NCBI GenBank assembly: GCA_963804955.1
Contig: CAWDSQ010000020.1
Coordinates: 246,758 to 310,757, forward strand
DNA from: an uncultured delta proteobacterium
Lineage (GTDB): Bacteria; Desulfobacterota; WTBG01; CAIYCZ01; CAIRTM01
Length of the DNA stretch: 64,000 bases
Reading direction: 5' to 3'
In this document: positions 23,457 to 49,760 of the stretch, in pieces
Position numbering within the stretch: position 1 is the first letter of the stretch
Layout of the letters: each line of letters begins with the position of its first letter
The notes under the pieces: model-generated
Told to the model about the DNA's origin: nothing
The model's database searches: none
The model's input: only the letters and a program-made list of their open reading frames with translations
Translations under genes and position numbers: made by a program

Positions 23457-23462
23457 AATAAA

Positions 23463-26825: not shown

Positions 26826-26854
26826 AAAAAAAAGCGGGAGGGGGGCCTCCCGCT
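26826..26854 (-). terminator. Terminator after glutamine synthetase
   Basis: GCGGGAGG/CCTCCCGC stem with a U-run on the minus strand. Confidence 0.7.
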
Positions 26855-26861
26855 GAAAGGA

Positions 26862-28952: not shown

Positions 28953-29068
28953 TTAGAAAATCTCCTTACATAGGTATAGCTGTTATAAATAATTTTACTT
29001 CGTTCTGTAAAGCACTCTTTGCTCAAGTACTTATTTTTTTAATTTTCCTTTGTTAGCTAAATTTAATT

Positions 29069-29083
29069 ACAAGAACGGTGCCA
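29069..29083 (-). promoter_or_regulatory. sigma54 -24/-12 promoter of glnA
   Basis: TGGCACCGTTCTTGT on the minus strand ~115 nt upstream of the ATG. Confidence 0.75.
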
Positions 29084-29225
29084 AACCATCGAGAGGCTTA
29101 CCAGCTCCGCCTGCACTAAACAGGCGTTATAAACTAAGTTATTGTTATAGCATCAAAAATTAATAAGTTGCGATTTATTCTAAACAAAAAAAACCTTCTT
29201 CCTGCCATTTAAATTGACAAAATAC

Positions 29226-29270
29226 TTACATTATTGTTACTATACTGCCTAGTGAATCACAAATTTGTTT
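29226..29270. promoter_or_regulatory. Two putative activator (UAS) sites, ACA-N4-TGT
   Basis: TTACATTATTGTTA (29226-29239) and TCACAAATTTGTTT (29257-29270); similar boxes at 49869-49903. Confidence 0.5.
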
Positions 29271-29306
29271 TTAGAAAAAAAATAATAAACCATAGCAGCT
29301 TTTCAT

Positions 29307-30875: not shown

Positions 30876-30970
30876 TGCCCCCACAGGCGTTAAACTGCCA
30901 GCAGGCGGGTTGTCTGCCTCGCCCGCCCCTGCCTGAGCACTGTCATTGGCAATACGTACGGTGCGGCGGT

Positions 30971-33733: not shown

Positions 33734-35172
33734 CTATCCCTTCGCCGGCCTTGCCATAACAGCCTCATGAAGGCACTGAGCAGCCTGCCTGCCCTGCCAG
33801 ATGGCGCGCACAACAAGCGATGGCCCTGTTACCGCATCGCCTGCGGCAAACACGCCAGGCACGGAACTCATATATCTGTCATCCACGGCAATGGTTCCGG
33901 AAGAGGAGAGCTGAACGCCAAGCTCATAAATCAATTTTCCATGAACTATGCCGGTAAATCCCATGGCAAGTATGACAAGATCGACATCAAGAGAAAAATC
34001 CGAGCCAGGCACTTCTTCAAATACCTGCCGTCCATTAATATCTTTCCATCCAACTCGTGTTGCGATTACCTTGGAAATTACTTCCACCATTTCCTTCGAA
34101 GCGCTTTGTCAAGACCGACCACTGAAGCTGGCAGCCTTCCTCGTGCGACGAGCTTTTTCTTACAATACGCGGCCAGTAGGGCCACTCAGGGTTCCACTGC
34201 TCGCTCCATTCACGCGGCATGGGCAGAAGTTCGAACTGATGAACGTCGCGGGCACCCTGCCGGTTTGCCGTCCCGACGCAGTCGGAGCCTGTATCGCCTC
34301 CGCCGATCACAAGCACGGATTTGCCGCATGCGGTAATGCCGTTGCCTGCAGGAGCTTCACCCTCAACTGTCTGGTTGGAGTATGCAAGGAAATCCATAGC
34401 ACAGTGGATCCCCGCAAGCTCACGGCCCGGCACCGAAAGATCGCGAGGAACTTCGGCGCCGCAGGTGATGAGAATGGCGTCAAAAGATCTTCGCAGATAG
34501 GCTGCTGAAATGTCTTCACCAACATGCACACCGGTTTCAAACTGGACTCCTTCGGCAGCCATCTGTTCAAGCCTGCGGTCGAGCACCCATTTTTCAAGCT
34601 TAAAACTGGGTATGCCGTAGCGCAAAAGGCCGCCGGGACTCTTCGATTTCTCCCAGACGACAACATCGTGGCCCAGACGCGCAAGCTGCTGAGCGGCAGC
34701 CAGTCCCGCAGGGCCTGAACCGACGATGGCAACGCGGCGGCCGGTTTTGAAGGGCGGTGGCGCCGGAAGCACCGCGTTTTCGGCAAAGCCGCGCTCAATA
34801 ATTGCAAGTTCATTGAGCCGTATGGTCACGGGGCCTTCGTTGATGGCAAGGGTGCAGGCTGCCTCACAGGGCGCCGGACATACACGCCCTGTAATTTCAG
34901 GAAAATTATTGGTCATTTCAAGGCGCTGCAGAGCATCTCGCCACTGACCACGGTAGACAGAATCATTCCATTCGGGAATAAGGTTGTAGAGCGGGCATCC
35001 CATGGCATGACAAAACGGAACTCCGCAGTCTATGCACCGTGCGGCCTGCTGCTGCACCGCCTCGTCCGGCAGGCGCGTTGCGACTTCACTGTAGTCTTTA
35101 AGCCGTTCAGGCACCGGACGATACGGTGGTAGTTACGCGCGAATACTCAAGAAAGCCTCTGATCTTTCCCAT
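33734..35172 (-). CDS. gltD: Glutamate synthase small (beta) subunit (frameshifts near 35125 and 34080)
   Basis: [62 protein letters not shown] overlaps the gltB TAA. Confidence 0.95.
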
Positions 35173-38100: not shown

Positions 38101-39719
38101 ATGACAGACATGACAAGATTTTCCCGGTAGGGGTCAATAGGCGGATTGGTAACCTGCGCGAAAAGCTGCTTGAAATATTTATACAGAAGCTGCGGCCGGT
38201 CGGAAAGCACGGCCAGAGCTTCGTCATTGCCCATGGAGCCGACCGGCTCCTGGGAGGTTTCAACCATAGGGGTTAAAATTTTGTCAATTTCTTCAAGGGT
38301 ATAGCCGAAAGCACGCTGCTGCGTAGCCAGCGACTTTTTCTCCTCTACCTGCACCATTCCCGGCACCTGAAAAAAACCTTTCAGCTCTATCTGATTCTGC
38401 TCCAGCCAGCGCCGGTAGGGTTTATGGCGGCATACCGATGCCTTGATCTCATTGTCCTTGATGACGCGCTTATGCACCGTATCGACAATGAGCATTTTGC
38501 CCGGCGCAAGCCGGCCTTTTTCAAGAACATCAGCCGGTTCAACAGGCACAACCCCCACTTCTGAAGCCATAATAACCCTGCCCTGCCTGGTCACAATATA
38601 GCGGGCAGGGCGCAACCCGTTCCGGTCAACTATTGCCCCCACCTTAAACCCGTCAGTGAATGCCATTGCAGCCGGGCCGTCCCAGGGCTCCATAATGGCT
38701 GCATGATATTCATAAAAAGCCCGCTTGTCTGTACTCATATGAATGGCCGGTCCGAAAGCCTCGGGAATCATCATCATCATGGCATGCTCCGGACTTCTGC
38801 CGCCGGCTACAAGCAGTTCATAGGTATTATCAAACATGGCTGAGTCACTGCCGCCCGGCATGATGATCGGGAAAAGCTTTGCTATATCATCGCCGAACAC
38901 TGGCGATGCCAGTGTTTTTTCACGCGCCTTCATCTTGTTGATATTGCCCCGAAGGGTATTGATCTCGCCGTTATGAGCCAGATACCTCAGGGGCTGGGCA
39001 AGGGGCCAGGATGGAAAGGTATTGGTGCTGTAGCGCTGATGTACCACGGCAAATGCGCTGTCGAAATCACGCTCGGCAAAATCACAGTAAAACTGCTCGA
39101 GCCGGGGGGCGTCAAACATGCCCTTATACGTGATGGTACGGCAGGACAAAGACGGAATGTAGAATTCCTCCAGCGGCAGCTTAAGACGAGCAGCCTCCTG
39201 TTCAATGCATTTGCGCACTACATACAGCTTTCGCTCCAGATTATCGCCAGCGAGTTCACCAAACTGAACAAAAAACTGCTTCATGTGGGGCATGGAGGCA
39301 AGGGCGATTTCGCCAAGGCAGTCCGGGCTCACGGGAACATCGCGCCATCCCAGCACAAGACCACCTTCCTGCTGCACAACAGATTCGACGGCAGCCAGCA
39401 TTTTTTGCCTGGTATCAATGTTTTGAGACAGAAACAAAAAACCTGCGCCGTAGGAACCGGGATCCGGAAGGCTAAAGCCCAGAGCCTTTGCCGTTTTCCT
39501 GAAGAAGAAATGAGGAAGCTGAATGAGCATGCCTGCGCCATCGCCGGTTTTCAGATCGCCGCCGACCGCTCCACGATGTACGAGGTTCTTTAAAATCGTC
39601 AATCCGCCGGTAACGATATCATGCGCTGGTTCACCGTCCACATTGACGATGAAGCCTACACCGCAGCTGTCATGTTCGAACTGCGGATCATAAAGCCCAT
39701 GCTCCGAATCCTGGCCCAT
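35172..39719 (-). CDS. gltB: Glutamate synthase large (alpha) subunit
   Basis: 1515 aa; HDSCGVGF, HQRYSTNT, EPWDGPA, KMAQGAKPGEGGQL, CIMARKCHLDAC, GXGXG domain. Confidence 0.98.
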   Translation of the reverse strand: MGQDSEHGLYDPQFEHDSCGVGFIVNVDGEPAHDIVTGGLTILKNLVHRGAVGGDLKTGDGAGMLIQLPHFFFRKTAKALGFSLPDPGSYGAGFLFLSQNIDTRQKMLAAVESVVQQEGGLVLGWRDVPVSPDCLGEIALASMPHMKQFFVQFGELAGDNLERKLYVVRKCIEQEAARLKLPLEEFYIPSLSCRTITYKGMFDAPRLEQFYCDFAERDFDSAFAVVHQRYSTNTFPSWPLAQPLRYLAHNGEINTLRGNINKMKAREKTLASPVFGDDIAKLFPIIMPGGSDSAMFDNTYELLVAGGRSPEHAMMMMIPEAFGPAIHMSTDKRAFYEYHAAIMEPWDGPAAMAFTDGFKVGAIVDRNGLRPARYIVTRQGRVIMASEVGVVPVEPADVLEKGRLAPGKMLIVDTVHKRVIKDNEIKASVCRHKPYRRWLEQNQIELKGFFQVPGMVQVEEKKSLATQQRAFGYTLEEIDKILTPMVETSQEPVGSMGNDEALAVLSDRPQLLYKYFKQLFAQVTNPPIDPYRENLVMSVMAFTGRERNLLAETPGHCHQIKLLYPVLTNEDMEKLRYCEIPDFKVEEVSMLFAVDEGKQGMADAIRAMCSRAELAIDQGASLVLLSDRWIDCKQMAVPALLATSAVHHHLVRAGKRHLAGLVIETAEARDVMHFATLVGFGASAVCPYLAYKIIASLQNDNKLPQGLTMPQAIENYITALKKGLLKIMSKMGISTIRSYKSAQLFESVGLNKACVDTFFPGTFSRVGGIGLEEIARETLQRHSEAFALHESPEREALPSGGSYHFRKFSEKHLLTAESIANIQWSVRDGRYDLYKKYASCVNNHAENLCTLRGLFKFKKGTPVPLDEVEPVDSIVKRFVSSAMSLGSISPEAHETIAIAMNRLGSQSNSGEGGEDESRYQPRADGDLSMSAVKQVASARFGVTSNYLAHARELQIKMAQGAKPGEGGQLPGHKVTEGIAKVRHATPGVMLISPPPHHDIYSIEDLAQLIYDLKNANPQARVSVKLVSEAGVGTIAAGVAKGKADMVLISGHDGGTGASPISSIKYVGMPWEIGLAEAQQTLLLNKLRNRIRLQVDGQLRTGRDVVIGALLGAEEFGFGTIVLVTMGCIMARKCHLDACPVGVASQDPELRRRFRGKPEHLMNFMRFVAQDTREIMSLLGFRTVDDMVGRVDMLDVNDALMHWKTRGLDFSGIFHQPELAAGRSLRCTRSQQHDFSQCLDFAIIEKARQALDERQPVQILMDIRNRNRTAGAMLSYEVSKRYGSAGLPDDTIWAKFNGSAGQSFGAFLAPGITFELEGDANDYFGKGLSGGRIIVYPPENSTFRPQNNIIAGNVNLFGATGGEVFIHGQAGERFAVRNSGAVAVVEGVGDHGCEYMTGGRVIILGPTGINFAAGMSGGIAYVLDTNQLFDTRCNLEMVDLSPIDDDQEAAYLYTMIKRHAGYTGSVYAEGILKDWAELLPYFVKVMPMDYRKALERIRQQQTRDSEHVVMTEEVFR

Positions 39720-39781
39720 AAAAACCTCAATTGTATGTGTCGGTTTATAAATGTTTTATATCAACATGCAAAATACTTTAA

Positions 39782-39797
39782 AGCAAAATAGATGCCA
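39782..39797 (-). promoter_or_regulatory. sigma54 -24/-12 promoter of gltBD
   Basis: TGGCATCTATTTTGCT on the minus strand ~60 nt upstream of the gltB ATG. Confidence 0.7.
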
Positions 39798-39828
39798 TTT
39801 TTGCAAACGATAACCTAAGAGCGAGGCC

Positions 39829-40647
39829 ATGCTAAACTACAAAGCTAAAGAACCATTTCCTGCTCTGTCGACCTGGATTGACTCTCAGCAGTCACAGGGC
39901 CGATATTTCTTTACCAGTGAGCAGGCCATTAATGAACTACAAGCATCCAAAGCCGCTTTTGATAATGCATCACTGAGGCTTGGAAAAAAGAAAAGAATAG
40001 CCCGGCTGTACAGCGGTTTCTATAGTATCATCCCCCTTGAATATGCCGCCACCGGCATGCTCCCTCCTGAATGGTTTATTGCCGACCTGATGAGTTATCT
40101 TAAAAAGCCATACTACGTCGGCCTTCTCAGCGCAGCAAACCTGCATGGCGCAGCCCATCAGCAGCCGCAGGAGTTTCAGGTGATAACGACCGCTGTAGTA
40201 AGAAAAATCGAGGTCGAAAATCTTGCAATTCGCTTTTTTACTAAAAAGAACTTTTGAGAGCACGTTCTACTTCTCAGGTTAAGGTGCAAACCGGTTTTAT
40301 GACGGTCTCCACCCCGGAGGCTACGGCTGTTGACCTTGTTTGCTATGCACGGCAAATTGGCGGGCTTGACCGGGTGCTTACCGTTTATCCAAGAGCTTGG
40401 GGAGGTGCTGGATGCCGACAAACTGGCAGCTGCGGCGAAAGCTGAAAATAATCTTGCGTATGCCCAGCGGTTAGGGTGGCTGCTTGAAAAGGCTGGCTTT
40501 AAAAACAAGACGCAAAAGCTTGCTGCGTGGGTATCAGGGCAAAATCCGCTGCCGGCAAGGCTTGAACCATCTCTTGCAGTAAAGGGTGCGCAGAAAGATG
40601 AACGGTGGTCGCTGCTCATTAATACCACGGTAGAGGGCGACCTGTGA
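39829..40647 (+). CDS. abiEi: Type IV toxin-antitoxin antitoxin, AbiEi family (frameshifts near 40255 and 40385)
   Basis: GRYFFT wHTH N-terminus, YYVGLLSAANLHGAAHQQPQEFQV, VSTPEATAVDL, QRLGWLLE, DERWSLLIN; GTGA overlap with the toxin. Confidence 0.88.
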
Positions 40648-41432
40648 TCCCGAAGGCCGACATTGTGGCATGGCGACAGCATGCGCCGTGGGTTGCCGAT
40701 GCTCAGGTCGAGCAGGATCTTATTATTAGCCGGGCGCTGGTTGCCATCTTTGCCGACGAAACACTTGCAGGGAAGCTTGCCTTTCGCGGCGGTACTGCTT
40801 TGCATAAGCTCTATTTTAAACCGGCACGGCGGTACTCTGAAGATATTGACCTTGTGCAGAGCAAGGCTGGCCCAATAGGTGCTGTGCTCGATAGTCTACA
40901 GGCAGTGCTCAACGGCTTTTTGGGAACGCCAAAGCGGAAACAGACAGAAGAAGGGGCCACACTAACCTACCGGATGGAATCAGAAGGGCCGCCTGTGGTG
41001 CCGATACGCTTGAAGGTTGAGATAAATACGCGCGAGCATGTTGCTTTTCAGGGGCTGCAACTGATGCCTTTTGCCGTTACAGGTCGTTGGTTCAGTGGAA
41101 GCTGTAATATTTCAACATTTACCCTTGAGGAGCTTCTGGCAACAAAACTGCGGGCGCTCTACCAGCGGCGCAAAGGCCGCGATCTGTTTGATGTATGGCT
41201 GGGGCTCACCGAAGGTGGTGCGGATGCTGTGCAGATTGTCACACTGTTTAAACAGTACATGGCTGCTGAAGGTCAAACAATTGATGCACGGACCTATGAA
41301 GCAAACATGCAGGATAAAATGAAGCATGCAGGGTTTTTGAGTGACCTGAAGCCCTTGCTGCCTGCAAAAACGAAATATGACGCATCAGAAGCCTTTGCCC
41401 TGCTGCAGAGGGAGATCATCGCTCGGCTGTAG
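40644..41432 (+). CDS. abiEii: AbiEii/AbiGii nucleotidyltransferase toxin
   Basis: QVEQDL, FRGGTALHKLY, RYSEDIDL, KVEINTRE, TKLRALYQR.KGRDLFD. Confidence 0.92.
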   Translation: MIPKADIVAWRQHAPWVADAQVEQDLIISRALVAIFADETLAGKLAFRGGTALHKLYFKPARRYSEDIDLVQSKAGPIGAVLDSLQAVLNGFLGTPKRKQTEEGATLTYRMESEGPPVVPIRLKVEINTREHVAFQGLQLMPFAVTGRWFSGSCNISTFTLEELLATKLRALYQRRKGRDLFDVWLGLTEGGADAVQIVTLFKQYMAAEGQTIDARTYEANMQDKMKHAGFLSDLKPLLPAKTKYDASEAFALLQREIIARL

Positions 41433-41459
41433 AAATCATTAGATAAAGGCCGATATTTT

Positions 41460-41550
41460 TGTCATTTCTAAGGAGCAGAGCGACTGAGAAATCTTGGGCC
41501 TGTGCTAATTAGCAGTGGGGGTAAGATTTCTCCCTTCGGTCGAAATGACA
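41460..41550. repeat. Palindromic miniature element (RPE/REP-like nested hairpin)
   Basis: Outer TGTCATTTC...GAAATGACA and inner GAGAAATCTT...AAGATTTCTC inverted repeats. Confidence 0.7.
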
Positions 41551-41661
41551 GACAACCATTCGTCGCAAAGCAGGGCAAGTCACAGGGCAAGTCCCTTAAA
41601 AAGAAAAAGACGATAAGGGCTAAAGGGCCTTTGTATAAACGGATTTACGAGGAGCGATAAT

Positions 41662-42055
41662 ATGAGTCTCAAACCCTGGCGGGAAATTGCAATTCCTCAT
41701 GAAGACGTGCTGAAAGGCACATTTCAGCAAGCGGAGTTTGCAGCCGATCTGTCGCGCGTGCATGACGGCACGGCAACGGCGGAATACCAAAACCCGGCGC
41801 TTTTTTATCAGCGCACTTTCATTACCGAAGGCCGGCCATATTGGAGGATTCCGCCTACAGCAGGCTCCAAGATGCCAAAAAGTCAAAGGTGTTAGACTGG
41901 ATCTTTTCATGTTTACACCACTAAAGTGGACCTTGAAAAGCTTGCCCGTGAATACTCTTTGCATTACACCAACAAACAAACTCCTGCGCGTGACCGACGA
42001 AGAAATTGAACTGCTCAAAAATCAGATACCAATGAATATCCGTGTAAATAGGTAA
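41662..42055 (+). pseudogene. Truncated DUF499-type AAA ATPase N-terminus joined to an unrelated gene fragment
   Basis: [38 protein letters not shown]...EYQNP..F..RTFITEG, then an abrupt switch near 41830. Confidence 0.7.
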
Positions 42056-42127
42056 AATCGGATAAAACAAAATGTGGACTACACTTATTGGCTGTCCGCT
42101 TAGAGAATCTCGAAAGCTGATACATTC

Positions 42128-42166
42128 AAAAAAAAGCGGACATACGCTCACTGCGCTGTCCGCTTT
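42128..42166 (-). terminator. Terminator after the second GOGAT-like operon
   Basis: AAAGCGGACA/TGTCCGCTTT stem with a U-run on the minus strand. Confidence 0.65.
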
Positions 42167-42190: not shown

Positions 42191-44827
42191 TTAGTTACAC
42201 GCGCAGGTTTCTCCCAGCCCGGCGTCGTTTTTAGCGGGTGCGGAAGCCTTTTTCGGCCATATTTTTCGGTATACGTCAGCAGGTGTTTTTTTTGTGCCGT
42301 CAACGGTCAGCAGCCTGTCGAGGCTAATGCCGAAAAGATTTTCATTCTCCTGAAGATACGGCAAAATAAGGCTCCAATCGGCATCGGTCATATCGGTGTA
42401 TTCACCGCCATTGAGCTGCTCGTCAACAAGTTTCCTGTGCGGATCTCGTACATAGATCGCACCGCCTGAAGCAAGTGAAAATATATTTGAGCCCGGGTAT
42501 GGCGAGTCGTATTCTTTGATGCTGCCGTCGGCATCATCAAAGCCGATGCCATTAAGCACTACAAAACCGCCGCCATTGAGAGGATCGCCGGCCATGAAGG
42601 ATTCTGCCAGATAGTCCAGGGCCGTACCGTTGATGACCACCCGGGGCTTGCCCACGGCATTGATGAGCGGCCTGCCCGCAGCATTGCCCAGGACATAGGC
42701 CGCGCCGCCCTTGGCGCCGTACATGAAGGTCTGGCCCACATCGCCGTGCACGACGAGCTTGCCGGCTTTCATGATCTGGCAGAGCTGGTCCTGGGCATTG
42801 CCGTGCACCTGAATTTCCATGCCGTCGATGCCTGACGCGAGATAATCACCCGATGCTCCGTACACATCGATGCGCACGCCTTCGGTTGCCGCACCGAAGC
42901 CGCAGCCCGTAAAACGCTGGCCGCGGTACTTGTAGACGATAAAGCGCCGCCACCCGAGCTTGTAGGCCGCCACAATCAGGACGGCGTCGCACATATCTCC
43001 TTCGGGCTCGAATTTTTCGGCATCGATGACCAGCACCGCATCTTCCTTCAGCGGCGCTCGCAGGCTCGCGCGGGTTTCAAAATCGATATGGCTGTATTTC
43101 GAGCCCGATGTTTCCGTAATGTTCGCCGTTGCGGCAAAAATCCCGTCGAGGCTCGCTTTCAGCACATGCAGCACCGATGCCCGCTTGACCGCGCCCGTAT
43201 CGAAGCGCCGGTCACCAAGCTTGGTGAGTGCCTCGATGGCGATGGTCTTATTGGCATCGCTCTGAGCCGCGAGCTGCTCGATGGCCTTGATTGCGCAGGT
43301 GAAAGCCTCAGGGGTAAATGTTTTGAGCCCGTCCCGGATAAAGGCAAACACGCCTGCAGCTGCCGCATCGGCGCCTGACTGAAACAGGGGGGCAAGCTTG
43401 GCTGCCGCGTTCTGCACGTCTGCATCGAGTGACTTTGAGGGCACTGAGCATATCTGCTGGTCCCGAGGGGTCGTGATCACCTTCCCGAACTTGTCTGTGC
43501 AGATGAGCTTTTTGCCGCCGTTGCCATTGTCAACAAGGCTAAAAATAAAAGAACCTCCGTCTGTATAGCTGCCGCCTCGTGCATTCCAGTACTTGTCGGC
43601 AATGGGCCGGAACCGTGAATCCTCGCGCTCAAGGGATATCAGCGTTGCGTCAATGGCCTGCTTTTCCGAACAGATGAGGCCGATCTGCACCTCGCCGCTC
43701 TCCTGCAGGGCAAATACCTGCGGCCGCAGCATGGCTGTGTCGGTGATGCCGATAAGCTGCAAGGCTTTATCTGCAATATTGTTCCGGGCAATAATGAAAA
43801 ACCACGGGCCGTCGGGCGAGGCATTCACATGGTGCGTCTGAATGGCCTTGTACAGCTTCTGCTTTTCAGCCGGAAGCAGGTCGAAATCCATCTCCGATGT
43901 GGGCGCCAGTGCCTCAATCAGGTACTCGAGCGGATACTTGTACACGCGGCTCCACAGGTCGAGCATAAGCGCCGCCTCTTCGGTATCGGTGAGAAACAGA
44001 GGAATATAATTGCGTTGTTTCAGATATTCGCTCACTGACTGATAGTTGGCAAAGTCCCCATTGTGCACCAGGGCCTCGTTGAGGGCGCTGAAGGGATGGC
44101 AGCCGCCGGGATGCCACACGCGGCCGCGGGTCGGGTAGCGCTGATGGGCGATCCATGCATGGGCCTTGAACTCCTCGAGCTTGTAATACTTCACCACATT
44201 TTCAGCATAGCCCACAATTTTAAGTATCATCATGTTGCGGCCATGGGACATGACGAAGGCTTTTTTCTCGCCCAGGGAGGCATAATATTTTGTGTTGATT
44301 TTAAAGCTGTTGCGGTACACGAACTCGTCTTCGGCATCGCGTCGGTCGAGGGCTGTAAGGCCATTGTCCCGGATAAAGCCGTCGAGCACGTCCGCTTTGA
44401 CCCGGACAAAATACCGCATGATCTCGGGCGGCTTCACATCAAGGCCGATGCTGCGGTAGTCGTCGATGCGCGCCAGCTTTTCCGATTTATCGATGGTGAA
44501 GCAGGGGAAGATGAACTGCTGTTCGATTTCAGCGGCAGCTGACTCGACAAGCAGAGCTATGTGCAGCATATAGTCGTCTTCAAGCACCTGCTGTGACACG
44601 CCCAGCGCTTCGGGGATGAAGCCGACGGCAGCTATACCTCCGCCCTTGCCGTTGCCCCGGTTGTGCATCTGTACCGAGGGTTCAAAAATATTTTTTCCCG
44701 TCACGGGGATGGAGCTGATGAAACCGGTAACACCGCAGCCGCCTTCCTCTTCGGTGTTCTGGGCAAGCGGGGGCACCTGGCTGCACAGCTCGGTGCGGGA
44801 TTCAAGAATTTGTTCTGCTCTGTTCAT
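42191..44827 (-). CDS. Glutamate synthase-related subunit: Ntn (type II) amidotransferase + GXGXG domain
   Basis: EGGCGVTGF after a ~30 aa propeptide, RGNGKGGG, AHQRYPT, HPF, HNGD, TDTE, GXGXG beta-helix, YLAESFMAG. Confidence 0.85.
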   Translation of the reverse strand: MNRAEQILESRTELCSQVPPLAQNTEEEGGCGVTGFISSIPVTGKNIFEPSVQMHNRGNGKGGGIAAVGFIPEALGVSQQVLEDDYMLHIALLVESAAAEIEQQFIFPCFTIDKSEKLARIDDYRSIGLDVKPPEIMRYFVRVKADVLDGFIRDNGLTALDRRDAEDEFVYRNSFKINTKYYASLGEKKAFVMSHGRNMMILKIVGYAENVVKYYKLEEFKAHAWIAHQRYPTRGRVWHPGGCHPFSALNEALVHNGDFANYQSVSEYLKQRNYIPLFLTDTEEAALMLDLWSRVYKYPLEYLIEALAPTSEMDFDLLPAEKQKLYKAIQTHHVNASPDGPWFFIIARNNIADKALQLIGITDTAMLRPQVFALQESGEVQIGLICSEKQAIDATLISLEREDSRFRPIADKYWNARGGSYTDGGSFIFSLVDNGNGGKKLICTDKFGKVITTPRDQQICSVPSKSLDADVQNAAAKLAPLFQSGADAAAAGVFAFIRDGLKTFTPEAFTCAIKAIEQLAAQSDANKTIAIEALTKLGDRRFDTGAVKRASVLHVLKASLDGIFAATANITETSGSKYSHIDFETRASLRAPLKEDAVLVIDAEKFEPEGDMCDAVLIVAAYKLGWRRFIVYKYRGQRFTGCGFGAATEGVRIDVYGASGDYLASGIDGMEIQVHGNAQDQLCQIMKAGKLVVHGDVGQTFMYGAKGGAAYVLGNAAGRPLINAVGKPRVVINGTALDYLAESFMAGDPLNGGGFVVLNGIGFDDADGSIKEYDSPYPGSNIFSLASGGAIYVRDPHRKLVDEQLNGGEYTDMTDADWSLILPYLQENENLFGISLDRLLTVDGTKKTPADVYRKIWPKKASAPAKNDAGLGETCACN

Positions 44828-44854
44828 TATAAGAACTCCGATTGAAATTTCACT

Positions 44855-44881
44855 GTAGGGGCGGTTGCGAACCGCCCCTAC
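44855..44881. repeat. GTAG-type REP palindrome
   Basis: GTAGGGGCGGTT-GCG-AACCGCCCCTAC. Confidence 0.8.
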
Positions 44882-44893
44882 CATTAATCATAT

Positions 44894-46375
44894 TTAGCTG
44901 TAATCAACATGCTCGAGCAGGTCGGTCCGGCCCACCAGCTCGGTTACGCTTTTCATGCCCATGCGCTGCAATATGTCGACGAGCTGGTAGTTCCAGGCAT
45001 GGTAAAGGTTGGTGAGGCGCTGTGTGGCCCATTCGTCATTGAACAGGTCCGCAAGCTCCGAGTCCGTCGAGGCGATGCCGCGGGCGCAGCCCCGGCCCGA
45101 TTCGCAGTTGCCGCAGCGCACGCACTCAAGAGCGACCATTTCTGCGGTGCCGATAACGGCGCCGTCGGCCCCCAGGCAGATCGCTTTTGCCAGGTCATGG
45201 GCCGTGCGTATGCCGCCCGAAGCGATCAGTGTCACCACATCCCGAGCGCCTTCGTCCCTCAGGAAATTGTGCACCTTCGGGATAGCGTATTCGATGGGCA
45301 TGGCGATATTCTTTTTCGCGATATCGGGCGCCGCGCCCGTTCCGCCGTAGCCGCCGTCGATGTGGATGATGTGGGCGCCGGCATAATAGGACCCGACGGC
45401 TACCATGTCGACGTCATTGGGCGTTGAAACCTTTACCGATACGAGTGCCCGCGGGTTCATTTCCTTGATCCAGTCGATATGCTTTTTGTGGTCCTCGATG
45501 GAGTAGACCGAGTGGAAGGGAAAAGGCGAAAACAGGGGCGTGCCCTTCACGGCCTCGCGCATCCGGGCGACGCTTTCGGTATTTTTTGTCCCGAGCAGAT
45601 GCCCGCCAAGGCCCGGCTTAGCTCCCTGGGCATACTTGAATTCCACGATCTTGACGCGCTGGATCGTTTCCTCGCGCACGCCGAAAAGGCCAGTGGCGAC
45701 CTGGGTGATCACATTATCATCATAGGGATACAGCATTTCCGGATACCCGCCTTCGCCGGTGCAGGTGAAGGTGTTCCATATTTTTGCATTGCGCGCCTTT
45801 GACAGCATCGTCGCAAGGCTCACCGAGCCGAAGGACATGCCGCCGCCATAGACGGGCGTCGAGATCAGCACATCGGCTCGGCCGTCAGCCCTGCGGTTCA
45901 GGCGTATGGCCGTCGAGATTTCCTCGCGATTCACCCTGGGCGGATTTTCCGGGAACTTCAGGCGCAGCTTGTCGAAGCCGCCGCCGGAATTGCCGAGGTT
46001 GTACCCCAGGTCCGTGCGCTCGGGCGGATAGCCGGTTTCGGCCATAATCCAGGTCGCAACGATCATGTCCGAGGTCCAGCGGCAGTCGCCCAGGGCGTCG
46101 TACATGGGATTGAGGGACAGGCTCAGGGCCTTGCGCGGGCACCGGTACACGCAGTAAAACTCATCGTTTTTGCGGCACTCGTAGCCGATGCATTTATAGT
46201 CGATGGGAGGCCGCATTCTGTTGTGCCCCTCGATTCGCTCGTGCACGCCGTAGGGGCAGCTTTTCGCGCACATGCCGCAATTGATACAGGCATCAGACCG
46301 GGTGACCTTGTACTTGGGCACCTGGTGCTTGAACCGCGATGGCATTGGTTTTATGACGACGCTGTCTGGTTTCAT
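44894..46375 (-). CDS. Glutamate synthase FMN-binding subunit with N-terminal ferredoxin (archaeal-type GltS/GltB2)
   Basis: CINCGMCAKSCP, GGMSFGS, TGEGG, EFKYAQGAKPGLGGHL, DGGYGGTGAAP, ASGGIRT, CVRCGNC..GC. Confidence 0.9.
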   Translation of the reverse strand: MKPDSVVIKPMPSRFKHQVPKYKVTRSDACINCGMCAKSCPYGVHERIEGHNRMRPPIDYKCIGYECRKNDEFYCVYRCPRKALSLSLNPMYDALGDCRWTSDMIVATWIMAETGYPPERTDLGYNLGNSGGGFDKLRLKFPENPPRVNREEISTAIRLNRRADGRADVLISTPVYGGGMSFGSVSLATMLSKARNAKIWNTFTCTGEGGYPEMLYPYDDNVITQVATGLFGVREETIQRVKIVEFKYAQGAKPGLGGHLLGTKNTESVARMREAVKGTPLFSPFPFHSVYSIEDHKKHIDWIKEMNPRALVSVKVSTPNDVDMVAVGSYYAGAHIIHIDGGYGGTGAAPDIAKKNIAMPIEYAIPKVHNFLRDEGARDVVTLIASGGIRTAHDLAKAICLGADGAVIGTAEMVALECVRCGNCESGRGCARGIASTDSELADLFNDEWATQRLTNLYHAWNYQLVDILQRMGMKSVTELVGRTDLLEHVDYS

Positions 46376-47769
46376 ACGTTTGCCGCTTCCTGCTTCTGAA
46401 AAAGTTTACCGAAAATGTCCTTATCAATTTCATCAAAAAATATGGCTCTACCCGTTTCGCCCCGCAGTCGCCTGGCCTCACGGATGCCCATCGCTCCCAT
46501 CATTTCAAGAATCTGCGAGTGCCAGGCGCCCATGAGGTTCACGATGCGCTGCCGCGCGACGGCTAGAGGTATGTTGTCGATTCCCTCGGGCATGATTATT
46601 TTCTTTTCCGGCTGCTGGTACACAAGCGCTCCCAGGGCGATGAGCAATGGCAGCCCTACCGCGGTCAGGTCTGCGCCGCATATACAGGCCTTGGGCACGT
46701 GCTCGGCCATGGCGATGCCGCCAGAGGCGATTATCGAGATTTCATCACGCACCCGCTCATCGACCAGCCTCAGGTGAACCGCCTGGATAACATCCTTGAT
46801 ATAACGGTCACCCTGTACTTCCATGCCGCAATAATCGGCGGCGATCTGCACGATCTCAACGCCTGCGCGGACAAGCTCAACCACCCGCTCCTCTATACCG
46901 GAGGCGGCGGGGATGCGCACGATGACCAGCGCCGGGGACAGGTTTTTAACCGATTCGCGAATGCTTGCGAAATTTTTCACCAGGGCATCGCTGTACTCGA
47001 GGGCGATGACCCGGGCATGCCTGATAAGCTCGGCATGGGACAGGACCTGCTCAGCGCTCATCAGCGGTATGATATGCATCATGTACGTGCGCACATCATC
47101 GGTAATAAGCTCTGCCGGTAACATAGCCAGGGAGCCGATATCTTTGGCTGCCGTAACGATCGCTTGCTTGACGGTGGGCCCGATGGGATCCGATGAGAGT
47201 ATGTCGAAAATAATCGGAATTGGCACATCGACAACGTCGAAAATCTTCGACACAAGAGCGCCCGAGCCGTCGAACTCCAGATGGTTGAGCTTCCTGCCCA
47301 GTTCCACGGCGGTGCTGATATATTCGCGGCCGTGAATGCCGTCGCGCGTTGGCCGGACGATCTCGGACATGTCGGTCCACATGCCGTCGAACCCCGGGCC
47401 CGTAAAAGGGCCGCGGTACCCGGCGCCCGATACGGGCACCTTGCCGTCTTCGGCCTGCTTCCAGATGGAAAGGAACATGTCGGGCTTCCAGTACGGCCCG
47501 CCCAGGGCCTGAAACTCGGGCTCAAGGGATTTCACCAGGGCGCCGCGAGGGCATTCCTGGATGCAGCGAAAGCAATTTTTGCATACCACGGTGTACGGGT
47601 CGGCGAGCTTGCGGATATCTGCCTCCGAGCGCTTGTGCGCTTCATAGATGCACACCTTGGTGCACTTGCCGCAGTTGATGCAGTTTTCACCCCGGGTGAT
47701 TTTGAACTTGGCTACGAGTTTCACGTCCAGGGGCGTGGGGTTGATTTCAATGTGATATTTTTTCGGCAT
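46372..47769 (-). CDS. Degenerate glutamate synthase FMN-barrel paralog with 2x[4Fe-4S] ferredoxin domain
   Basis: CINCGKCTKVC, CKNCFRCIQECP, GAGY.GPF.G.GFD, IASGG, MGAMG; lacks MSFG, GEGG, QGAKPG and the Cys cluster. Confidence 0.8.
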   Translation of the reverse strand: MPKKYHIEINPTPLDVKLVAKFKITRGENCINCGKCTKVCIYEAHKRSEADIRKLADPYTVVCKNCFRCIQECPRGALVKSLEPEFQALGGPYWKPDMFLSIWKQAEDGKVPVSGAGYRGPFTGPGFDGMWTDMSEIVRPTRDGIHGREYISTAVELGRKLNHLEFDGSGALVSKIFDVVDVPIPIIFDILSSDPIGPTVKQAIVTAAKDIGSLAMLPAELITDDVRTYMMHIIPLMSAEQVLSHAELIRHARVIALEYSDALVKNFASIRESVKNLSPALVIVRIPAASGIEERVVELVRAGVEIVQIAADYCGMEVQGDRYIKDVIQAVHLRLVDERVRDEISIIASGGIAMAEHVPKACICGADLTAVGLPLLIALGALVYQQPEKKIIMPEGIDNIPLAVARQRIVNLMGAWHSQILEMMGAMGIREARRLRGETGRAIFFDEIDKDIFGKLFQKQEAANV

Positions 47770-47801
47770 ACGCACTACATTCAATAGGATTAGGATCATT
47801 T

Positions 47802-47829
47802 GTAGGGGCGTATGGCCATACGCCCCTCC
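47802..47829. repeat. GTAG-type REP palindrome
   Basis: GTAGGGGCGTATGG/CCATACGCCCCT. Confidence 0.75.
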
Positions 47830-47832
47830 TTC

Positions 47833-49671
47833 TTATGAATTGCGCTCGACCATGTCCCAGTATTCCTTGCTGGCATCTATGGTTTTTAAAAATTCCTTGA
47901 TTTTTTCATCCGGCCTGGCGAAATTGACTTCAAGCCGGCGCTCCAGTGCATCCCAGAGCGTCATCAGGTCGAGGTTGGTTTGGCAGATTTCCTCGCAGGC
48001 CCGGCAGTGCATGCACATATAGGCGTTTGCCGCCTCCTCGGCAGTAACGGGCTGCCCGGCAATGAGCTTTTTGGCAAGTTCAATTTTACCCTTGCCGCTG
48101 ACGGCCTCGTTTTTCAGGACCAGGTAGGCCGGGCACACGGCCATGCAGTTGCCGCACTTGGCGCAGGCATGCGTACTGAGCTCAAGATCAAGGGAGTCGA
48201 GCTTCTTGTCCTTGCCGAAAAGCATGGTCGCGACCGGACCGATTATCGGCGACAGCAGAATAAGCAGGCTCATGGAAAGCCCGAACACCATGGGGTGGAA
48301 CAGCAGTGCCGGAATGTTCATGAACTTCGACCCAACCCGAAGGTGCTTGCCAGGGTTCATGATGCCGTTCGGGTCGGTCTTTACTTTGTAAGCCCGTATT
48401 TCAGCCTGCTGCTCGGTACTAAACAAATGGTTGACGAAAGCGGCATTCCAAATCCCCAGGCCGTAGGGCTTGGCGCCCATGGAAACGGCGGCCTGCGTGA
48501 GCATGGAAACAAGCGGCATGTGGATCATGTACTTGAGTTTCCGTGAGTCGCAGAGAAATGTCGTCATGATAAGGGCGCGGGTCCGGTCCAGGATATAGGA
48601 ATCAATACAGATCTCGGTCCCGTAATACCCCCCGAGTGTTTTAGCCTTATCAATGAAGGCCGCGGCATCAGCTATGGGCAGGACAACTTCGCTTGCCAGC
48701 AGCGTCGGGCCCAGTCGTTTTGCCTTCATGCCGAACAGCCGCTCGTTCCACAAGTATGAGGCGGCATAGGCAGGAGATTGCTCATAGGTGCCGAATTGCC
48801 TGATAAGGTCTAGAAACTGCTGTTCCTCAGCGGTATTTGAAAATTCGACCAGCACGCCAGCCTCTTCCTTGAAGACATTGGCATGCATTATTTCATTGGT
48901 TTCACGCAGGTGATTCGCGTCGATGAATCTGATCACATTGGCAGCTGTTTTCTGCCTGGCTGCCTGGGCTATGAAATCAAAGGCATCCTTGTCGGTTGCG
49001 AAATAAAAAATATGGGCATAGGAGTTTTTCGGCAGTTCGCGAAGCTTGAGGGTCACTTCGGCAATTATACCGAACTGGCCCTCCCTGGAGACGAAAAAAT
49101 CGAATTCCCGGTCAGCGGGCGTCAGCTTTTTCACCTCTCCGGCCGGGGTGACCACGGTCATGGACTGGATCTGTTTAGAAATATGTCCGTAGCGGTAGCT
49201 GTTGATGCCGTAGCCGCCGGTGGCGATCCAGCCGGCAACGGTGGAGAACTTGCTGGAAGGATAGGTCATCAGGCACAGGTCGTCTTTTTTAGCCAGTATG
49301 TCGATGTCGCTCCACCTGGCGCCCGCCTCAACCGTCACGGTCTTGTGTGCTTTATCGAGCACAAGGATTTTGCGCAGCGGCGAAAGGTCGACAACAATGC
49401 CGCCCCGCGTGGGAATAACGCCGCCAAAACCCCATGAAGCAGCGCCGCGCGCAATAACGGGTATTTTCCTTTCATGGGCAAAGGCAAGCACCTTCTGTAT
49501 TTCATCTATGCTCTGCGGCTGGACGACAAAATCAGGCTGCGTTTGAAAAAAAGTCTGTGTCATAATATGCGGCACATCGCCAATATCATGACTGTACATG
49601 TCTTTTTCAGCAGCACTTCCAATAATTTTAATCCCGCCGGCAATAGTTCTGAACTCGTCTTCTGGTTTCAT
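47833..49671 (-). CDS. FAD-binding oxidoreductase (GlcD/D-LDH family) with C-terminal 4Fe-4S dicluster
   Basis: PVIARGAASWGFGG, VTVEAG, STVAGW.ATGGYG, EGQFGII, DPNGIMNPGK, CAKCGNCMAVCP, CMHCRACEEIC. Confidence 0.88.
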   Translation of the reverse strand: MKPEDEFRTIAGGIKIIGSAAEKDMYSHDIGDVPHIMTQTFFQTQPDFVVQPQSIDEIQKVLAFAHERKIPVIARGAASWGFGGVIPTRGGIVVDLSPLRKILVLDKAHKTVTVEAGARWSDIDILAKKDDLCLMTYPSSKFSTVAGWIATGGYGINSYRYGHISKQIQSMTVVTPAGEVKKLTPADREFDFFVSREGQFGIIAEVTLKLRELPKNSYAHIFYFATDKDAFDFIAQAARQKTAANVIRFIDANHLRETNEIMHANVFKEEAGVLVEFSNTAEEQQFLDLIRQFGTYEQSPAYAASYLWNERLFGMKAKRLGPTLLASEVVLPIADAAAFIDKAKTLGGYYGTEICIDSYILDRTRALIMTTFLCDSRKLKYMIHMPLVSMLTQAAVSMGAKPYGLGIWNAAFVNHLFSTEQQAEIRAYKVKTDPNGIMNPGKHLRVGSKFMNIPALLFHPMVFGLSMSLLILLSPIIGPVATMLFGKDKKLDSLDLELSTHACAKCGNCMAVCPAYLVLKNEAVSGKGKIELAKKLIAGQPVTAEEAANAYMCMHCRACEEICQTNLDLMTLWDALERRLEVNFARPDEKIKEFLKTIDASKEYWDMVERNS

Positions 49672-49744: not shown

Positions 49745-49760
49745 TGCAAAAGCAATGCCA
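49745..49760 (-). promoter_or_regulatory. sigma54 -24/-12 promoter of the FAD-oxidase/GOGAT-like operon
   Basis: TGGCATTGCTTTTGCA on the minus strand ~75 nt upstream of the ATG. Confidence 0.75.

Follow-up and report, generated by a model that had tools for sequence, protein, structure and literature searches.

A four-gene operon probably encoding a glutamate synthase with an FAD and iron-sulfur protein in the place of GltD

Introduction

A 64,000-nucleotide stretch of DNA from an uncultured delta proteobacterium (hereafter, the window) carries four adjoining genes, A to D, that had been described from the sequence alone as a second glutamate-synthase-like system beside a complete gltBD. This locus raises the question of which enzyme the four genes encode and how electrons would enter it. 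We propose, with a probability of about 0.7, that the four proteins together form a glutamine-dependent glutamate synthase (GOGAT) with A in the place of GltD. Most likely, the usual NADPH-binding subunit has been replaced by A, an FAD and iron-sulfur protein. Full-text literature searches found no paper describing this four-gene system.

Results

Layout and signals of the operon

Four tightly packed minus-strand ORFs were found where the sequence-only reading had placed the operon: A at 47833-49671, B at 46372-47799, C at 44894-46375 and D at 42191-44884. B and C overlap by 4 nt, and the remaining intergenic gaps are shorter than 70 nt. Alignments of homologues suggest that B starts at M11 (47769) and D at M20 (44827). 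The operon is bounded by a sigma-54-type promoter and a terminator-like hairpin. The -24/-12 promoter motif TGGCATTGCTTTTGCA (TGGCAT-N5-TTGCA; 49745..49760, minus strand) lies 74 nt upstream of the ATG of A. Two matches to this pattern occur in the window versus 0.52 expected, the second at 39782-39797 on the minus strand, and 10 of 100 shuffles gave at least two, so the motif alone is weak evidence. The promoter had been noted earlier, and strict matches precede A in 30 of 57 related loci, at distances of mostly 80-110 nt from its start. The hairpin, AAGCGGACA...TGTCCGCTT followed by a T run (42127..42165, minus strand), was read from the sequence 26 nt past the stop codon of D, and a terminator scan placed its inner stem at 42149-42134. 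The operon is richer in GC (0.561) than the window (0.509) and the immediate flanks (0.482 and 0.416), as had been noted. The raised GC is no sign of import, because gltB has a GC content of 0.545 and the operon position is syntenic with the closest relatives. A search for RNA runs containing this DNA listed none.

Domain composition of C, B and D

None of the four proteins attains the cut-off of an NCBIfam model, and their assignment was made with Pfam, profile and structure comparisons. C (493 aa; 44894..46375, minus strand) is a ferredoxin-fused glutamate-synthase FMN barrel, in which Pfam detects ferredoxin motifs and Glu_synthase (6.8e-88). It aligns with the GltB structures 2vdc/1ea0 (2.3e-50), shares 34% identity across 315 aa with the GltB of the window itself, and keeps the GltB stretches AQGAKPG-GG, SP-P-H--YSIED, GGTGA-P and SGGI...LGAD. 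Its N-terminus carries two [4Fe-4S] motifs (C30/33/36/40 and C62/67/75/79), and a four-Cys motif (C418/421/424/430) occupies the position of the three-Cys motif of GltB. B (465 aa from M11; 46372..47769, minus strand, the ORF extending to 47799) is a degenerate full-length paralogue of C, as indicated by hhalign (probability 99.9%, E 2e-35, 29% identity across 427 columns) and by Pfam, which reports ferredoxin motifs and a weak Glu_synthase match (1.8e-8). It retains the two N-terminal [4Fe-4S] motifs (C30/33/36/40 and C63/66/69/73, numbered from M11) and lacks both the catalytic AQGAKPG...SPFPFH stretch and the cluster adjoining the FMN site.

In D (878 aa from M20; 42191..44827, minus strand, the ORF extending to 44884), a 30-residue leader precedes an Ntn glutaminase, and a variable middle part connects this to a GXGXG beta-helix domain. 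Pfam finds GXGXG (2.2e-12), with GATase_6 below threshold (24.9 bits versus a cut-off of 27). The GXGXG part matches the window's GltB with a probability of 92% (hhalign), and D was also aligned with FwdC (5t5i). The amidotransferase part resembles known ones only weakly; it matches the glutaminase domain of GlmS (1xff, 2.8e-4) with Arg73, Asn98-Gly99 and Asp123 aligned, and the glutaminase residues of D are C31, R230, N256-G257 and D281 in the 878-aa numbering. EGGCGV and the Ntn glutaminase motifs are invariant.

The domains of GltB/GltD from Azospirillum brasilense (PDB 1ea0, 2vdc, 6s6s) recur here, including the FMN barrel with its neighboring iron-sulfur cluster, the GXGXG domain and the Ntn glutaminase, and so does the logic of FAD, iron-sulfur clusters and FMN in series. 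However, two proteins are replaced by four, the glutaminase is nearer to GlmS/PurF than to GATase_2 and is fused to GXGXG, B, a complete but degenerate duplicate of the FMN subunit, stands in for the central domain of GltB, C has four Cys in place of three, and the substitute for GltD is an unrelated LDHD-fold flavoprotein. A further related system is the split archaeal-type synthase, which includes the predicted F420-dependent FGltS of methanogens (PMC3448663, PMC9012536) and consists of a separate glutaminase, a ferredoxin-fused FMN subunit and a GXGXG protein. It shares with the operon the ferredoxin-fused FMN subunit and the idea of attaching different electron-input subunits, whereas D unites glutaminase and GXGXG, the dead paralogue B is added, and the input is a GlcD/LDHD-type FAD protein rather than an FrhB/FpoF-type F420 subunit or a Pyr_redox_2 flavoprotein. 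C-like proteins of 507-541 aa in the window's phylum are 34-35% identical to C, and stand-alone glutaminases of 371-391 aa match residues ~25-395 of D.

The four genes are kept together across genomes

The earlier suggestion of a single heteromeric enzyme with an unusual electron input is supported by synteny, gene fusion and predicted docking. Among close loci with at least 4.8 kb upstream of D, A occurs with B, C and D, in that order and on one strand, in 61 of 62; this count describes one subfamily only, since the loci were found with peptide patterns from the window's D. They come from at least four phyla (Desulfobacterota, Chloroflexota, Bacillota and Verrucomicrobiota). In six genomes of the window's phylum, all domains lie in A-B-C-D order in single ORFs of 2,364-2,548 aa, a seventh genome has a cut-off fusion of this kind, and a protein library contains fused chains of 2,526-3,152 aa. 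In four of five loci, glnA lies immediately upstream of the giant fusion, and carA or carB lies downstream of it in four of five (both in three); no extra redox gene was found beside the fusions in the five loci.

Structure prediction places the iron-sulfur domain of A on the ferredoxin domain of B. When A(440-612) was modelled together with B, the score was 0.70 and that of the best control 0.00; of 157 solved complexes 116 attain this mark of 0.70, as do 2 of 215 mismatched pairs. Contact agreement between runs was at least 79%, partner pLDDT was at least 72, and in the predicted interface the C553-C556 motif of A faces C30-C36 and C73 of the B motifs.

The operon is resident and lies among genes of nitrogen metabolism

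Synteny reverses the picture of a second system beside gltBD. A segment of ~8.4 kb (33734..42126) is missing from the corresponding position in the closest relatives, L002 and L006, where a PPDK_N gene directly follows D. Pfam identifies in this segment gltD in two split frames (33734-34090 and 34035-35114), canonical gltB (35172-39719), an AbiEi/AbiEii toxin-antitoxin pair (39829-41432, plus strand) and small ORFs. The four-gene operon thus sits at the conserved position, and the canonical gltBD and AbiE pair are the inserted DNA; no flanking repeats were found around the segment. The split of gltD is probably an assembly indel, as the nearby purF and PPDK_N genes are split too.

Beyond the segment lies a nitrogen neighborhood (26862..33345; Pfam) whose order beside the operon is conserved in L002 and L006, with a PPDK_N-domain protein in split frames (30971-33345, minus strand), a GAF-domain sigma-54 activator (29307-30875, plus strand) and a type III glutamine synthetase (GS; 26862-28952, minus strand). 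These genes recur among 65 loci, whose flanks contain GS type III in 18, GS type I in 18, AmtB in 13, the GAF sigma-54 activator in 21, carA in 19 and guaA in 16. In a sample of 201 genomes of the phylum, the D type was found in 60, the GltB central domain in 39 and both in 4, and searches for the GltB central domain found none in four of five genomes of one set and in five of five of another. Genomes with the D type mostly lack canonical GltB, a near-exclusion. Glutamate dehydrogenase was present in all five genomes searched, so the operon need not be the sole route to glutamate.

These observations bear on whether the enzyme is a glutamate synthase at all. It could instead be a related enzyme with a different 2-oxoacid or amine as substrate, N-methylglutamate synthase being a precedent, or it could work backwards and oxidise glutamate. 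Split GltB-like proteins of other function exist (MgsABC), and both the lack of an NCBIfam assignment and the mere 34% identity of C to the FMN domain of the window's GltB fit such a reading. We regard it as very improbable, given the invariant glutaminase motifs of D, the GS, AmtB and nitrogen regulators adjoining the operon and the near-exclusion of canonical GltB. Moreover, among the window ORFs scanned there is no sarcosine-oxidase-like gene, and the sole GS-like gene is the type III glutamine synthetase. The different amine donor raised by the sequence-only reading is likewise not supported, since the Ntn glutaminase motifs are invariant and the neighbors are glutamine synthetases, AmtB and glutamine-using enzymes.

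A is an LDHD-fold flavoprotein without the usual catalytic residues

A (612 aa; 47833..49671, minus strand) combines an FAD-binding PCMH domain and a cap domain of LDHD/LctD-like fold with a C-terminal pair of [4Fe-4S] motifs (C503/506/509/513 and C553/556/559/563). Pfam reports FAD_binding_4 (7.8e-35), FAD-oxidase_C (7e-13) and Fer4_8 (3.3e-9), detects no CCG domains in A, and confirms two earlier statements, namely that ferredoxin motifs are present in three subunits (A, B and C) and that the operon contains no GltD-like gene. A hydrophobic helix at ~455-490, which might bear on the membrane link raised in the sequence-only reading, has borderline hydropathy. The best PDB profile match is LctD (7qh2_C, 2.3e-32), the AlphaFold model (pLDDT 76.9) matches mouse LDHD in Foldseek (5e-26, TM 0.81), and a glycolate oxidase / D-lactate dehydrogenase entry is also among the best sequence and fold matches.

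These matches suggest that A could be a D-2-hydroxyacid dehydrogenase, with D-lactate, glycolate or D-2-hydroxyglutarate driving glutamate synthesis; the redox potentials of such donors would suffice. Indeed, A shares with LDHD (8jde), LctD of Ldh-EtfAB (7qh2) and GlcD of GlcDEF a fold of ~450 residues (target-normalised TM 0.76-0.82) and the FAD-binding motifs, and its GlcF-like 2x[4Fe-4S] domain recalls fused GlcD-GlcF or YdiJ-type proteins, although CCG domains are missing and A is partnered with a glutamate synthase instead of a quinone or ETF. According to the mouse LDHD report (PMC10589216), Mn2+ is bound by His398, His405 and Glu442, His443 is the proposed base, Arg347 binds the substrate carboxylate, and alanine at any of these five positions abolishes activity. 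The invariant R311 of A aligns with Arg347. At the positions of His398, His405, Glu442 and His443, however, the A family has Y359, A366, a gap and Y403, with Y359 and Y403 invariant. Four of the five residues described there as essential, the three metal ligands and the catalytic His, are therefore missing, which weakens the earlier proposal of 2-hydroxyacid oxidation by the usual mechanism and makes this reading improbable.

With the catalytic set of its nearest solved relatives missing, the FAD site of A may have no small substrate to oxidise. The iron-sulfur chain could then be fed by reduced ferredoxin or by a different protein, the FAD of A acting as a buffer, regulator or second outlet, possibly bifurcating; the hosts, going by record titles, are strict anaerobes rich in ferredoxin-linked metabolism. 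We consider this unlikely, as a full FAD domain would be costly as a mere wire and many invariant residues surround the expected active site. These cap-domain residues (W308, R311, K316, K318, R319, E328, Y359, D375, R377 and Y403) argue for a specific ligand.

A as a proposed exchangeable electron-input module

Comparison with more distant loci places A outside the catalytic core. The sequence-only reading treated conservation of the FAD oxidase with the other three genes as decisive; this holds for 61 of the 62 close loci but not for a sister subfamily (D ~60% identical), in which B, C and D occur together in 8 of 10 loci and A in none. The shared core is 39-44% (B), 63-69% (C) and 58-61% (D) identical, and glutamine synthetase and carAB-sized genes lie nearby. 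Unlike the window's operon, these have MvhD (FlpD) upstream of B in all five loci tested, with MetV (DUF5981) in three and MetF (MTHFR) in two, so that MvhD, with or without MetVF, takes the place of A. As the sister loci keep B, C, D and MvhD without A, we suggest that A is an exchangeable electron-input module. Because the search for A in the phylum scored only six candidates per genome, its absence elsewhere is soft.

The identity of the exchanged partners points in two directions. MvhD, a pure electron-transfer protein, accords with the protein donor considered above. Conversely, GltD holds the place of A in the canonical enzyme, and Pyr_redox_2/Rubredoxin_C flavoproteins hold it in three of six three-gene split clusters, which suggests that NAD(P)H might reduce the flavin of A, as in MurB, a member of the same FAD-fold superfamily; the enzyme would in that case be one of the NAD(P)H-GOGATs, though its dehydrogenase module would be unrelated to theirs. 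The giant fusions contain no further donor-binding domain, and the invariant basic loop of A, K316-x-K318-R319-L-G-P, could bind phosphates. Against this, the cap domain is LDHD-like and not MurB-like, MurB matches A only weakly (2.1e-7 over the FAD domain), and we know of no member of the GlcD/LDHD branch that uses NAD(P)H. We judge a nicotinamide donor, too, to be unlikely. Our tentative preference, held at somewhat less than even odds, is that A oxidises an anionic organic metabolite at a site of the LDHD fold that is lined by Tyr/Arg and has no metal.

Discussion

For the four-protein glutamate synthase that we favor, the following mechanism can be envisaged. D, from which we assume the 30-residue leader is removed, would expose Cys31 as the N-terminal nucleophile, hydrolyse glutamine and hand the ammonia to C. 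At the FMN barrel of C, 2-oxoglutarate would be bound and the resulting imine reduced to glutamate. The FMN would be fed through a series of seven predicted [4Fe-4S] clusters, of which C would contribute three and A and B two each, with B, as a catalytically dead copy of C, serving as scaffold and wire in the manner of the central domain of GltB. In the role of GltD, A would take two electrons from its donor on FAD and pass them singly into the chain. The comparisons show the domain make-up with its invariant cysteines and motifs, the strict gene order, the natural fusions, the setting among nitrogen genes and the near-exclusion of canonical GltB; from them we infer catalytic activity, the order of electron flow and the role of A as entry point. 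The operon would then represent an unstudied form of glutamate synthase, an enzyme that brings nitrogen into amino acids.

A four-gene operon encoding the parts of a probable glutamate synthase

The genes A, B, C and D follow one another in the same direction on the window's minus strand: A at 47833-49671 (an ORF of 612 aa), B at 46372-47799 (475 aa; alignments place the likely start at M11, position 47769), C at 44894-46375 (493 aa) and D at 42191-44884 (897 aa; likely start M20, position 44827, also from alignments). B and C overlap by 4 nt, the remaining gaps are shorter than 70 nt, and a hairpin followed by a T run stands 26 nt past the stop codon of D. As the sequence-only reading had noticed, the operon is richer in GC (0.561; window 0.509) than its immediate flanks (0.482 and 0.416). 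No NCBIfam model reached its cut-off for A, B, C or D. We found no published description of the operon in the full-text literature, subscription journals and supplements lying outside this coverage, and mentions of GlcD in benzene-activation papers are unrelated to it.

C carries the FMN barrel of glutamate synthase (Glu_synthase, PF01645, 6.8e-88, well above the Pfam cut-off) and is 34% identical to the window's own GltB over 315 residues. Alignments to 1ea0 and to that GltB show that it retains the motifs AQGAKPG-GG, SP-P-H--YSIED, GGTGA-P and GG..T..D...LGA. An eight-cysteine ferredoxin domain occupies its N-terminus, and C418-x2-C421-x2-C424-x5-C430 is invariant. The three cluster cysteines of Azospirillum GltB align with C418, C424 and C430, whereas the invariant fourth cysteine, C421, is additional to those that hold the [3Fe-4S] cluster of GltB; this suggests that the cluster beside the FMN of C would be a [4Fe-4S] cluster. 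Over its full length B is paralogous to C (29% identity across 427 columns; hhalign probability 99.9%, E 2e-35), and it keeps the eight-cysteine ferredoxin domain. The ferredoxin motifs noted earlier in three subunits fall in A, B and C. In the hhalign comparison B is gapped at C's KYAQGAKPGLGG...SPFPFHSVYSIED and has no cysteine at C's third-cluster position.

In D, the GXGXG domain is well supported (PF01493, 2.2e-12; score 47.3 bits, cut-off 32.5; GltB 1305-1426 is aligned at an hhalign probability of 92%). The glutaminase part preceding it falls short of the Pfam threshold (GATase_6, 24.9 bits where 27 are required), and the motifs E28-G-G-C31-G-V, H228-Q-R230-Y-P-T, H255-N256-G257 and T280-D281-T-E are invariant in 22 D sequences. 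When the D profile was aligned to residues 68-131 of GlmS (1xff), R230, N256-G257 and D281 corresponded to Arg73, Asn98-Gly99 and Asp123; in GlmS the Asn-Gly pair serves the oxyanion and the Arg and Asp bind glutamine, roles that would fall to the counterparts in D. The leaders of GltB and PurF are processed to a free cysteine, and the 30-residue leader before Cys31, the predicted catalytic cysteine of D, would have to come off.

Like GltB, the operon thus possesses FMN barrel motifs, class II glutaminase motifs and a GXGXG beta-helix, re-paired as had been proposed: glutaminase and GXGXG are both in D and the FMN barrel is in the separate C. It differs from GltB in having no central domain (PF04898), with B, the paralogue of C, in its place. 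By Pfam, PF04898 is missing from A, B and D and matches C only weakly (6.3e-5, 22.9 bits), in a stretch that overlaps C's own FMN barrel. Homology of B to the central domain was rejected at an hhalign probability of only 9%, and the correspondence is therefore kept as an analogy. The operon probably encodes a variant form of the known enzyme glutamate synthase (GOGAT), common in anaerobes. D is currently annotated as 'glucosamine-fructose-6-phosphate aminotransferase' or 'glutamate synthase domain 1/3', a widespread mis-annotation that knowledge of the donor would correct.

Synteny, fusions and predicted contact of the subunits

A scan of one genome per species yielded 279 stretches encoding a relative of D, of which the best 80 were kept; because close loci were found by peptide patterns from the window's D, the locus counts describe one subfamily. 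Sixty-two of these best 80 extend 4.8 kb or more upstream of D, and in 61 of them A, B and C occur in order and on the same strand; the lone exception (L070) has a truncated D. Median identity to the window is 65% for A, 61% for B, 86% for C and 75% for D. All the domains also occur together in single chains of the protein library (2,526-3,152 aa, one with a permuted order). Among 201 sampled genomes of the window's phylum, six encode fused ORFs, 2,364-2,548 aa long and ordered A-B-C-D, and a seventh encodes an incomplete one. Four of five such fusion loci have glnA immediately before the ORF, four have carA or carB behind it (three have both), and no other redox gene adjoins the fusion ORF. 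The fusion ORFs of loci L081-L085 (genomes G033, G129, G016, G161 and G095) measure 2,364-2,544 aa.

When A(440-612) was modelled with B and four clusters, the predicted complex scored 0.70 (best control 0.00). Among solved complexes 116 of 157 attain this mark, among mismatches 2 of 215; custom alignments and ligands fall outside the calibration of the scoring tool. Contacts agreed by at least 79% between runs, with a partner pLDDT of at least 72. In the model, residues 553-558 and 591-612 of A contact residues 28-35, 47, 52-54 and 74-75 of B, and the cluster motif of A faces that of B.

The flavoprotein A and its electron donor

A contains FAD_binding_4 (7.8e-35), FAD-oxidase_C (7e-13) and Fer4_8 domains (Pfam), the last at residues 501-566, matching GlcF residues 23-111; eight cysteines (C503/506/509/513 and C553/556/559/563) are invariant in 21 sequences. 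Unlike GlcF, GlpC and HdrD-type proteins, A has this 2x[4Fe-4S] domain without CCG domains, none of which Pfam detected at E up to 0.01. The GltD-type domains Fer4_20 and Pyr_redox_2 are missing from all four operon proteins, in keeping with the earlier remark that a GltD-like NAD(P)H subunit is lacking, and the sole GltD-like gene in the neighbourhood is that of the canonical gltBD.

The best solved relatives of A in a PDB profile search are LctD (2.3e-32), alkyl-DHAP synthase and mouse LDHD. Its model (pLDDT 76.9) matches LDHD at TM 0.81-0.82 and 8jde, 9qit and 7qh2_C at TM 0.76-0.82 (Foldseek), and like LDHD, LctD and GlcD it has a PCMH-type FAD domain and a cap domain. For mouse LDHD, a published study (PMC10589216) gives His398, His405 and Glu442 as Mn2+ ligands, Arg347 as binding the carboxylate and His443 as the proposed base, with the Ala mutant of each of these residues inactive. 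The invariant W308-x-x-R311 of A aligns with W344 and R347 of LDHD, and the positions of His398, His405, Glu442 and His443 are occupied in the A family by Y359, A366, a gap and Y403. The H405A substitution named in the entry titles is visible in the aligned 8jdb sequence, which confirms the register. A therefore departs from LDHD, LctD and GlcD in lacking the metal ligands and the catalytic His, and only the carboxylate Arg is retained. With four of the five catalytic positions changed, the usual 2-hydroxyacid mechanism is not available to A, and the earlier proposal of 2-hydroxyacid oxidation as the electron input is weakened.

Invariant residues are nevertheless numerous in the cap domain (W308, R311, K316, K318, R319, E328, Y359, D375, R377 and Y403), a pattern which suggests that A binds a specific, probably anionic ligand. 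The fused library protein P0190 has a His at the position of Tyr359. Segment 445-500 of A is borderline in hydrophobicity (19-residue Kyte-Doolittle maximum 0.85-2.15 in 21 sequences), its hydrophobic helix (~455-490), a possible membrane anchor, makes no contact with B in the complex model, and the same segment of P0190 is, by eye, less hydrophobic. The Protein Atlas returned only same-architecture clusters for A and no functional lead.

To our knowledge, the textbook donors of glutamate synthase are NADPH, NADH and ferredoxin only. A is possibly a metal-independent LDHD-fold dehydrogenase of an anionic metabolite, through which a glutamate synthase would draw electrons straight from a catabolic intermediate rather than from NAD(P)H or ferredoxin; we put the chance of this at roughly three in ten.

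Predicted electron input varies among related loci

The expected co-occurrence of all four genes held in the close loci, where A is so regularly kept, and broke down in ten other D-type loci, none of which has A within 9 kb. In eight of these ten, B (39-44% identical), C (63-69%) and D (58-61%) occur together. In all five sister loci analysed for it, the small ORF before B encodes MvhD (FlpD); three of the five also have MetV (DUF5981) and two have MetF (MTHFR). An MvhD gene, alone or accompanied by MetV and MetF, stands upstream of B in the sister operons L092 and L095-L101. In the 201-genome sample, an A profile found stand-alone A in G000, G006, G087, G185 and G188 in addition to the seven fusions, and as six candidates were scored per genome, the lack of A elsewhere in the sample is a soft result. 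The sister form without A appeared the commoner one in that sample.

In the same phylum, six split clusters of three genes combine a C-like protein with a separate glutaminase; four of them include a GXGXG protein and three a Pyr_redox_2/Rubredoxin_C flavoprotein. Split clusters with this flavoprotein are L086, L090 and L091, and L091 also has a weakly B-like second Glu_synthase protein adjoining glnA. The MvhD/MetVF and Pyr_redox_2 proteins of these related loci indicate a core of B-C-D with a variable electron input, and A would be an exchangeable input module on a core of B-C-D, or of C and D parts. A parallel, as a prediction only, is offered by the F420-dependent glutamate synthases predicted in methanogens and ANME (PMC3448663, PMC9012536).

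Apparent replacement of canonical GltB

In the 201-genome sample, a D-type protein is present in 60 genomes (56 with E = 0, four cut at contig ends) and the GltB central domain in 39, and both occur together in only four (G000, G050, G088 and G155), counts that include related, non-independent genomes. The central domain is absent from all seven fusion genomes (six with full-length fusions, one incomplete) and from the five genomes holding L002, L003, L006, L009 and L042. Five further genomes comprised two Syntrophus (complete or near-complete), a Smithellaceae, a Syntrophomonadaceae and a Chloroflexia; four of them had no significant PF04898, and their Glu_synthase barrels beyond E 1e-5 were the operon's C and B only. 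The operon and its sister B-C-D forms thus appear to replace canonical GltB in many strict anaerobes, and judging by gene content the A-B-C-D operon is likely the GOGAT of these organisms. Glutamate dehydrogenase was found in all five genomes searched, so the operon is not necessarily their sole route to glutamate. Carriers include syntrophic degraders of fatty acids and aromatics (Syntrophus, with the cultured Syntrophus buswellii, Smithella, Syntrophorhabdaceae and Syntrophomonadaceae), Dehalococcoidia and Opitutae, organisms that run methanogenic digesters, sediments and peat.

Nitrogen neighbourhood and regulatory signals

Flank families were counted in the 65 loci with all four ORFs (from the best 80 of 279). 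A PPDK_N-domain protein recurs in 24, a GAF-domain sigma-54 activator in 21, carA in 19, glutamine synthetase (GS) types III and I in 18 each, guaA in 16, AmtB in 13 and NrpR in 6. Beside the operon in the window lie carAB, purF, pyrG, GS type III and a GAF-domain sigma-54 activator, all within 18866-33345; this glutamine-related run and the two GOGAT systems form a 30-kb nitrogen island. The PPDK_N (ATP-grasp) protein of about 860 aa, whose N-terminal part has no domain assignment, comes directly after D (30971-33345, minus strand, in the window; 2060-4651 in L051; about 30 of the 80 loci). In 22 of the 65 loci it shares the strand of D, the median gap being 154 nt; perhaps it is a regulator, or a fifth component of the system.

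The alternative that the enzyme acts on a different amine donor, raised in the sequence-only reading, would bring it close to N-methylglutamate synthase (MgsABC). Gene context sets the two apart, and the idea finds no backing in it: neither the scanned window ORFs nor the flank families of the 65 loci contain the methylamine-use domains of gamma-glutamylmethylamide synthetase or N-methylglutamate dehydrogenase.

A sigma-54-type motif, TGGCATTGCTTTTGCA, stands 74 nt upstream of the start of A (49745-49760, minus strand). The motif that had been read before the operon is present, though weak evidence by itself, since the pattern matches twice in the window against 0.52 expected and at least two matches were reached in 10 of 100 shuffles. 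Of 57 related loci (from the best 80 of 279), 30 have a strict match before A, mostly 80-110 nt from the start; going by record titles, these 30 are deltaproteobacterial or Syntrophales-type plus two Syntrophomonadaceae, with no Chloroflexota or Verrucomicrobiota among them. Canonical gltB is preceded, at a distance of 63 nt, by a second such motif, TGGCATCTATTTTGCT (39782-39797, minus strand). Both glutamate synthase systems in the window may be under sigma-54 control. The sequencing runs listed as containing this DNA, each with a share of 0.28 or less, included no RNA run.

History and spread of the locus

The window shares with its closest relatives among the best 80 of 279, L002 and L006, the order lipB-lipA-[ABCD]-PPDK_N-activator-GSIII-pyrG, with the activator on the opposite strand. 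Between D and the PPDK_N gene the window has some 8.4 kb (33734-42126) with two small ORFs, AbiEi/AbiEii and canonical gltB and gltD, and no flanking repeats were found around the gltBD and AbiE block. AbiEi/AbiEii, a type IV toxin-antitoxin pair, occupies 39829-41432 on the plus strand, between canonical gltB and the operon. Horizontal import of the operon, a possibility raised by its GC content, was rejected on this collinearity, the extra DNA being gltBD and AbiE. As L002 and L006 lack the gltBD block at this spot, the four-gene operon is the resident and gltBD was added in the window's lineage; the operon had been described as a second system beside gltBD, and the adjacency stands while the order of arrival is reversed. 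Canonical gltBD adjoins the operon also in L025, L049 and L059. Four other genomes of the window's family have no D-type gene, and three of these four have GltB.

The gltBD pair had been called complete. Both genes are present, and gltD (33734-35114) is split between two overlapping frames, as are purF (23576-24938) and the PPDK_N-domain gene (30971-33345). So many split genes in 12 kb point to assembly errors (insertions or deletions), and the reading of gltD as a true pseudogene was not adopted for this reason. Farther out on the minus strand are a 584-aa ORF with a sub-threshold ThuA match (53391-55145) and a 499-aa ORF with a MopE-like metal-binding motif (56385-57884).

In a FastTree phylogeny of C and D from 56 loci with both at full length and the window, rooted only at the midpoint, there was one clade apiece for Chloroflexota (14 rows, support 100), Verrucomicrobiota (5 rows, 98) and Bacillota (5 rows, 100), nested among Desulfobacterota on very short inner branches. 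This topology is compatible with single transfers from phylum to phylum or with very strong constraint. Loci L012-L076 of these three phyla are 72-87% identical to the window in C and 66-78% in D, and their neighbours are less alike (PPDK_N protein 40-44% in most loci, GS type III about 50%). That C and D are far more alike across phyla than the neighbouring genes likewise points to transfer or unusually strong constraint.

Implications for nitrogen assimilation in anaerobes

Glutamate synthase is the main entry of nitrogen into biomass. The identity of A's donor would tell how these energy-starved anaerobes pay for nitrogen assimilation and would add an input module to the repertoire of iron-sulfur flavoenzymes. 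If the tentative reading of A is true, the versions with A, with MvhD/MetVF and with Pyr_redox_2 proteins would belong to one modular family, in which glutamate synthases of anaerobes share a B-C-D core and the GOGAT reaction, strongly exergonic, would act as an electron sink fitted to each lifestyle.
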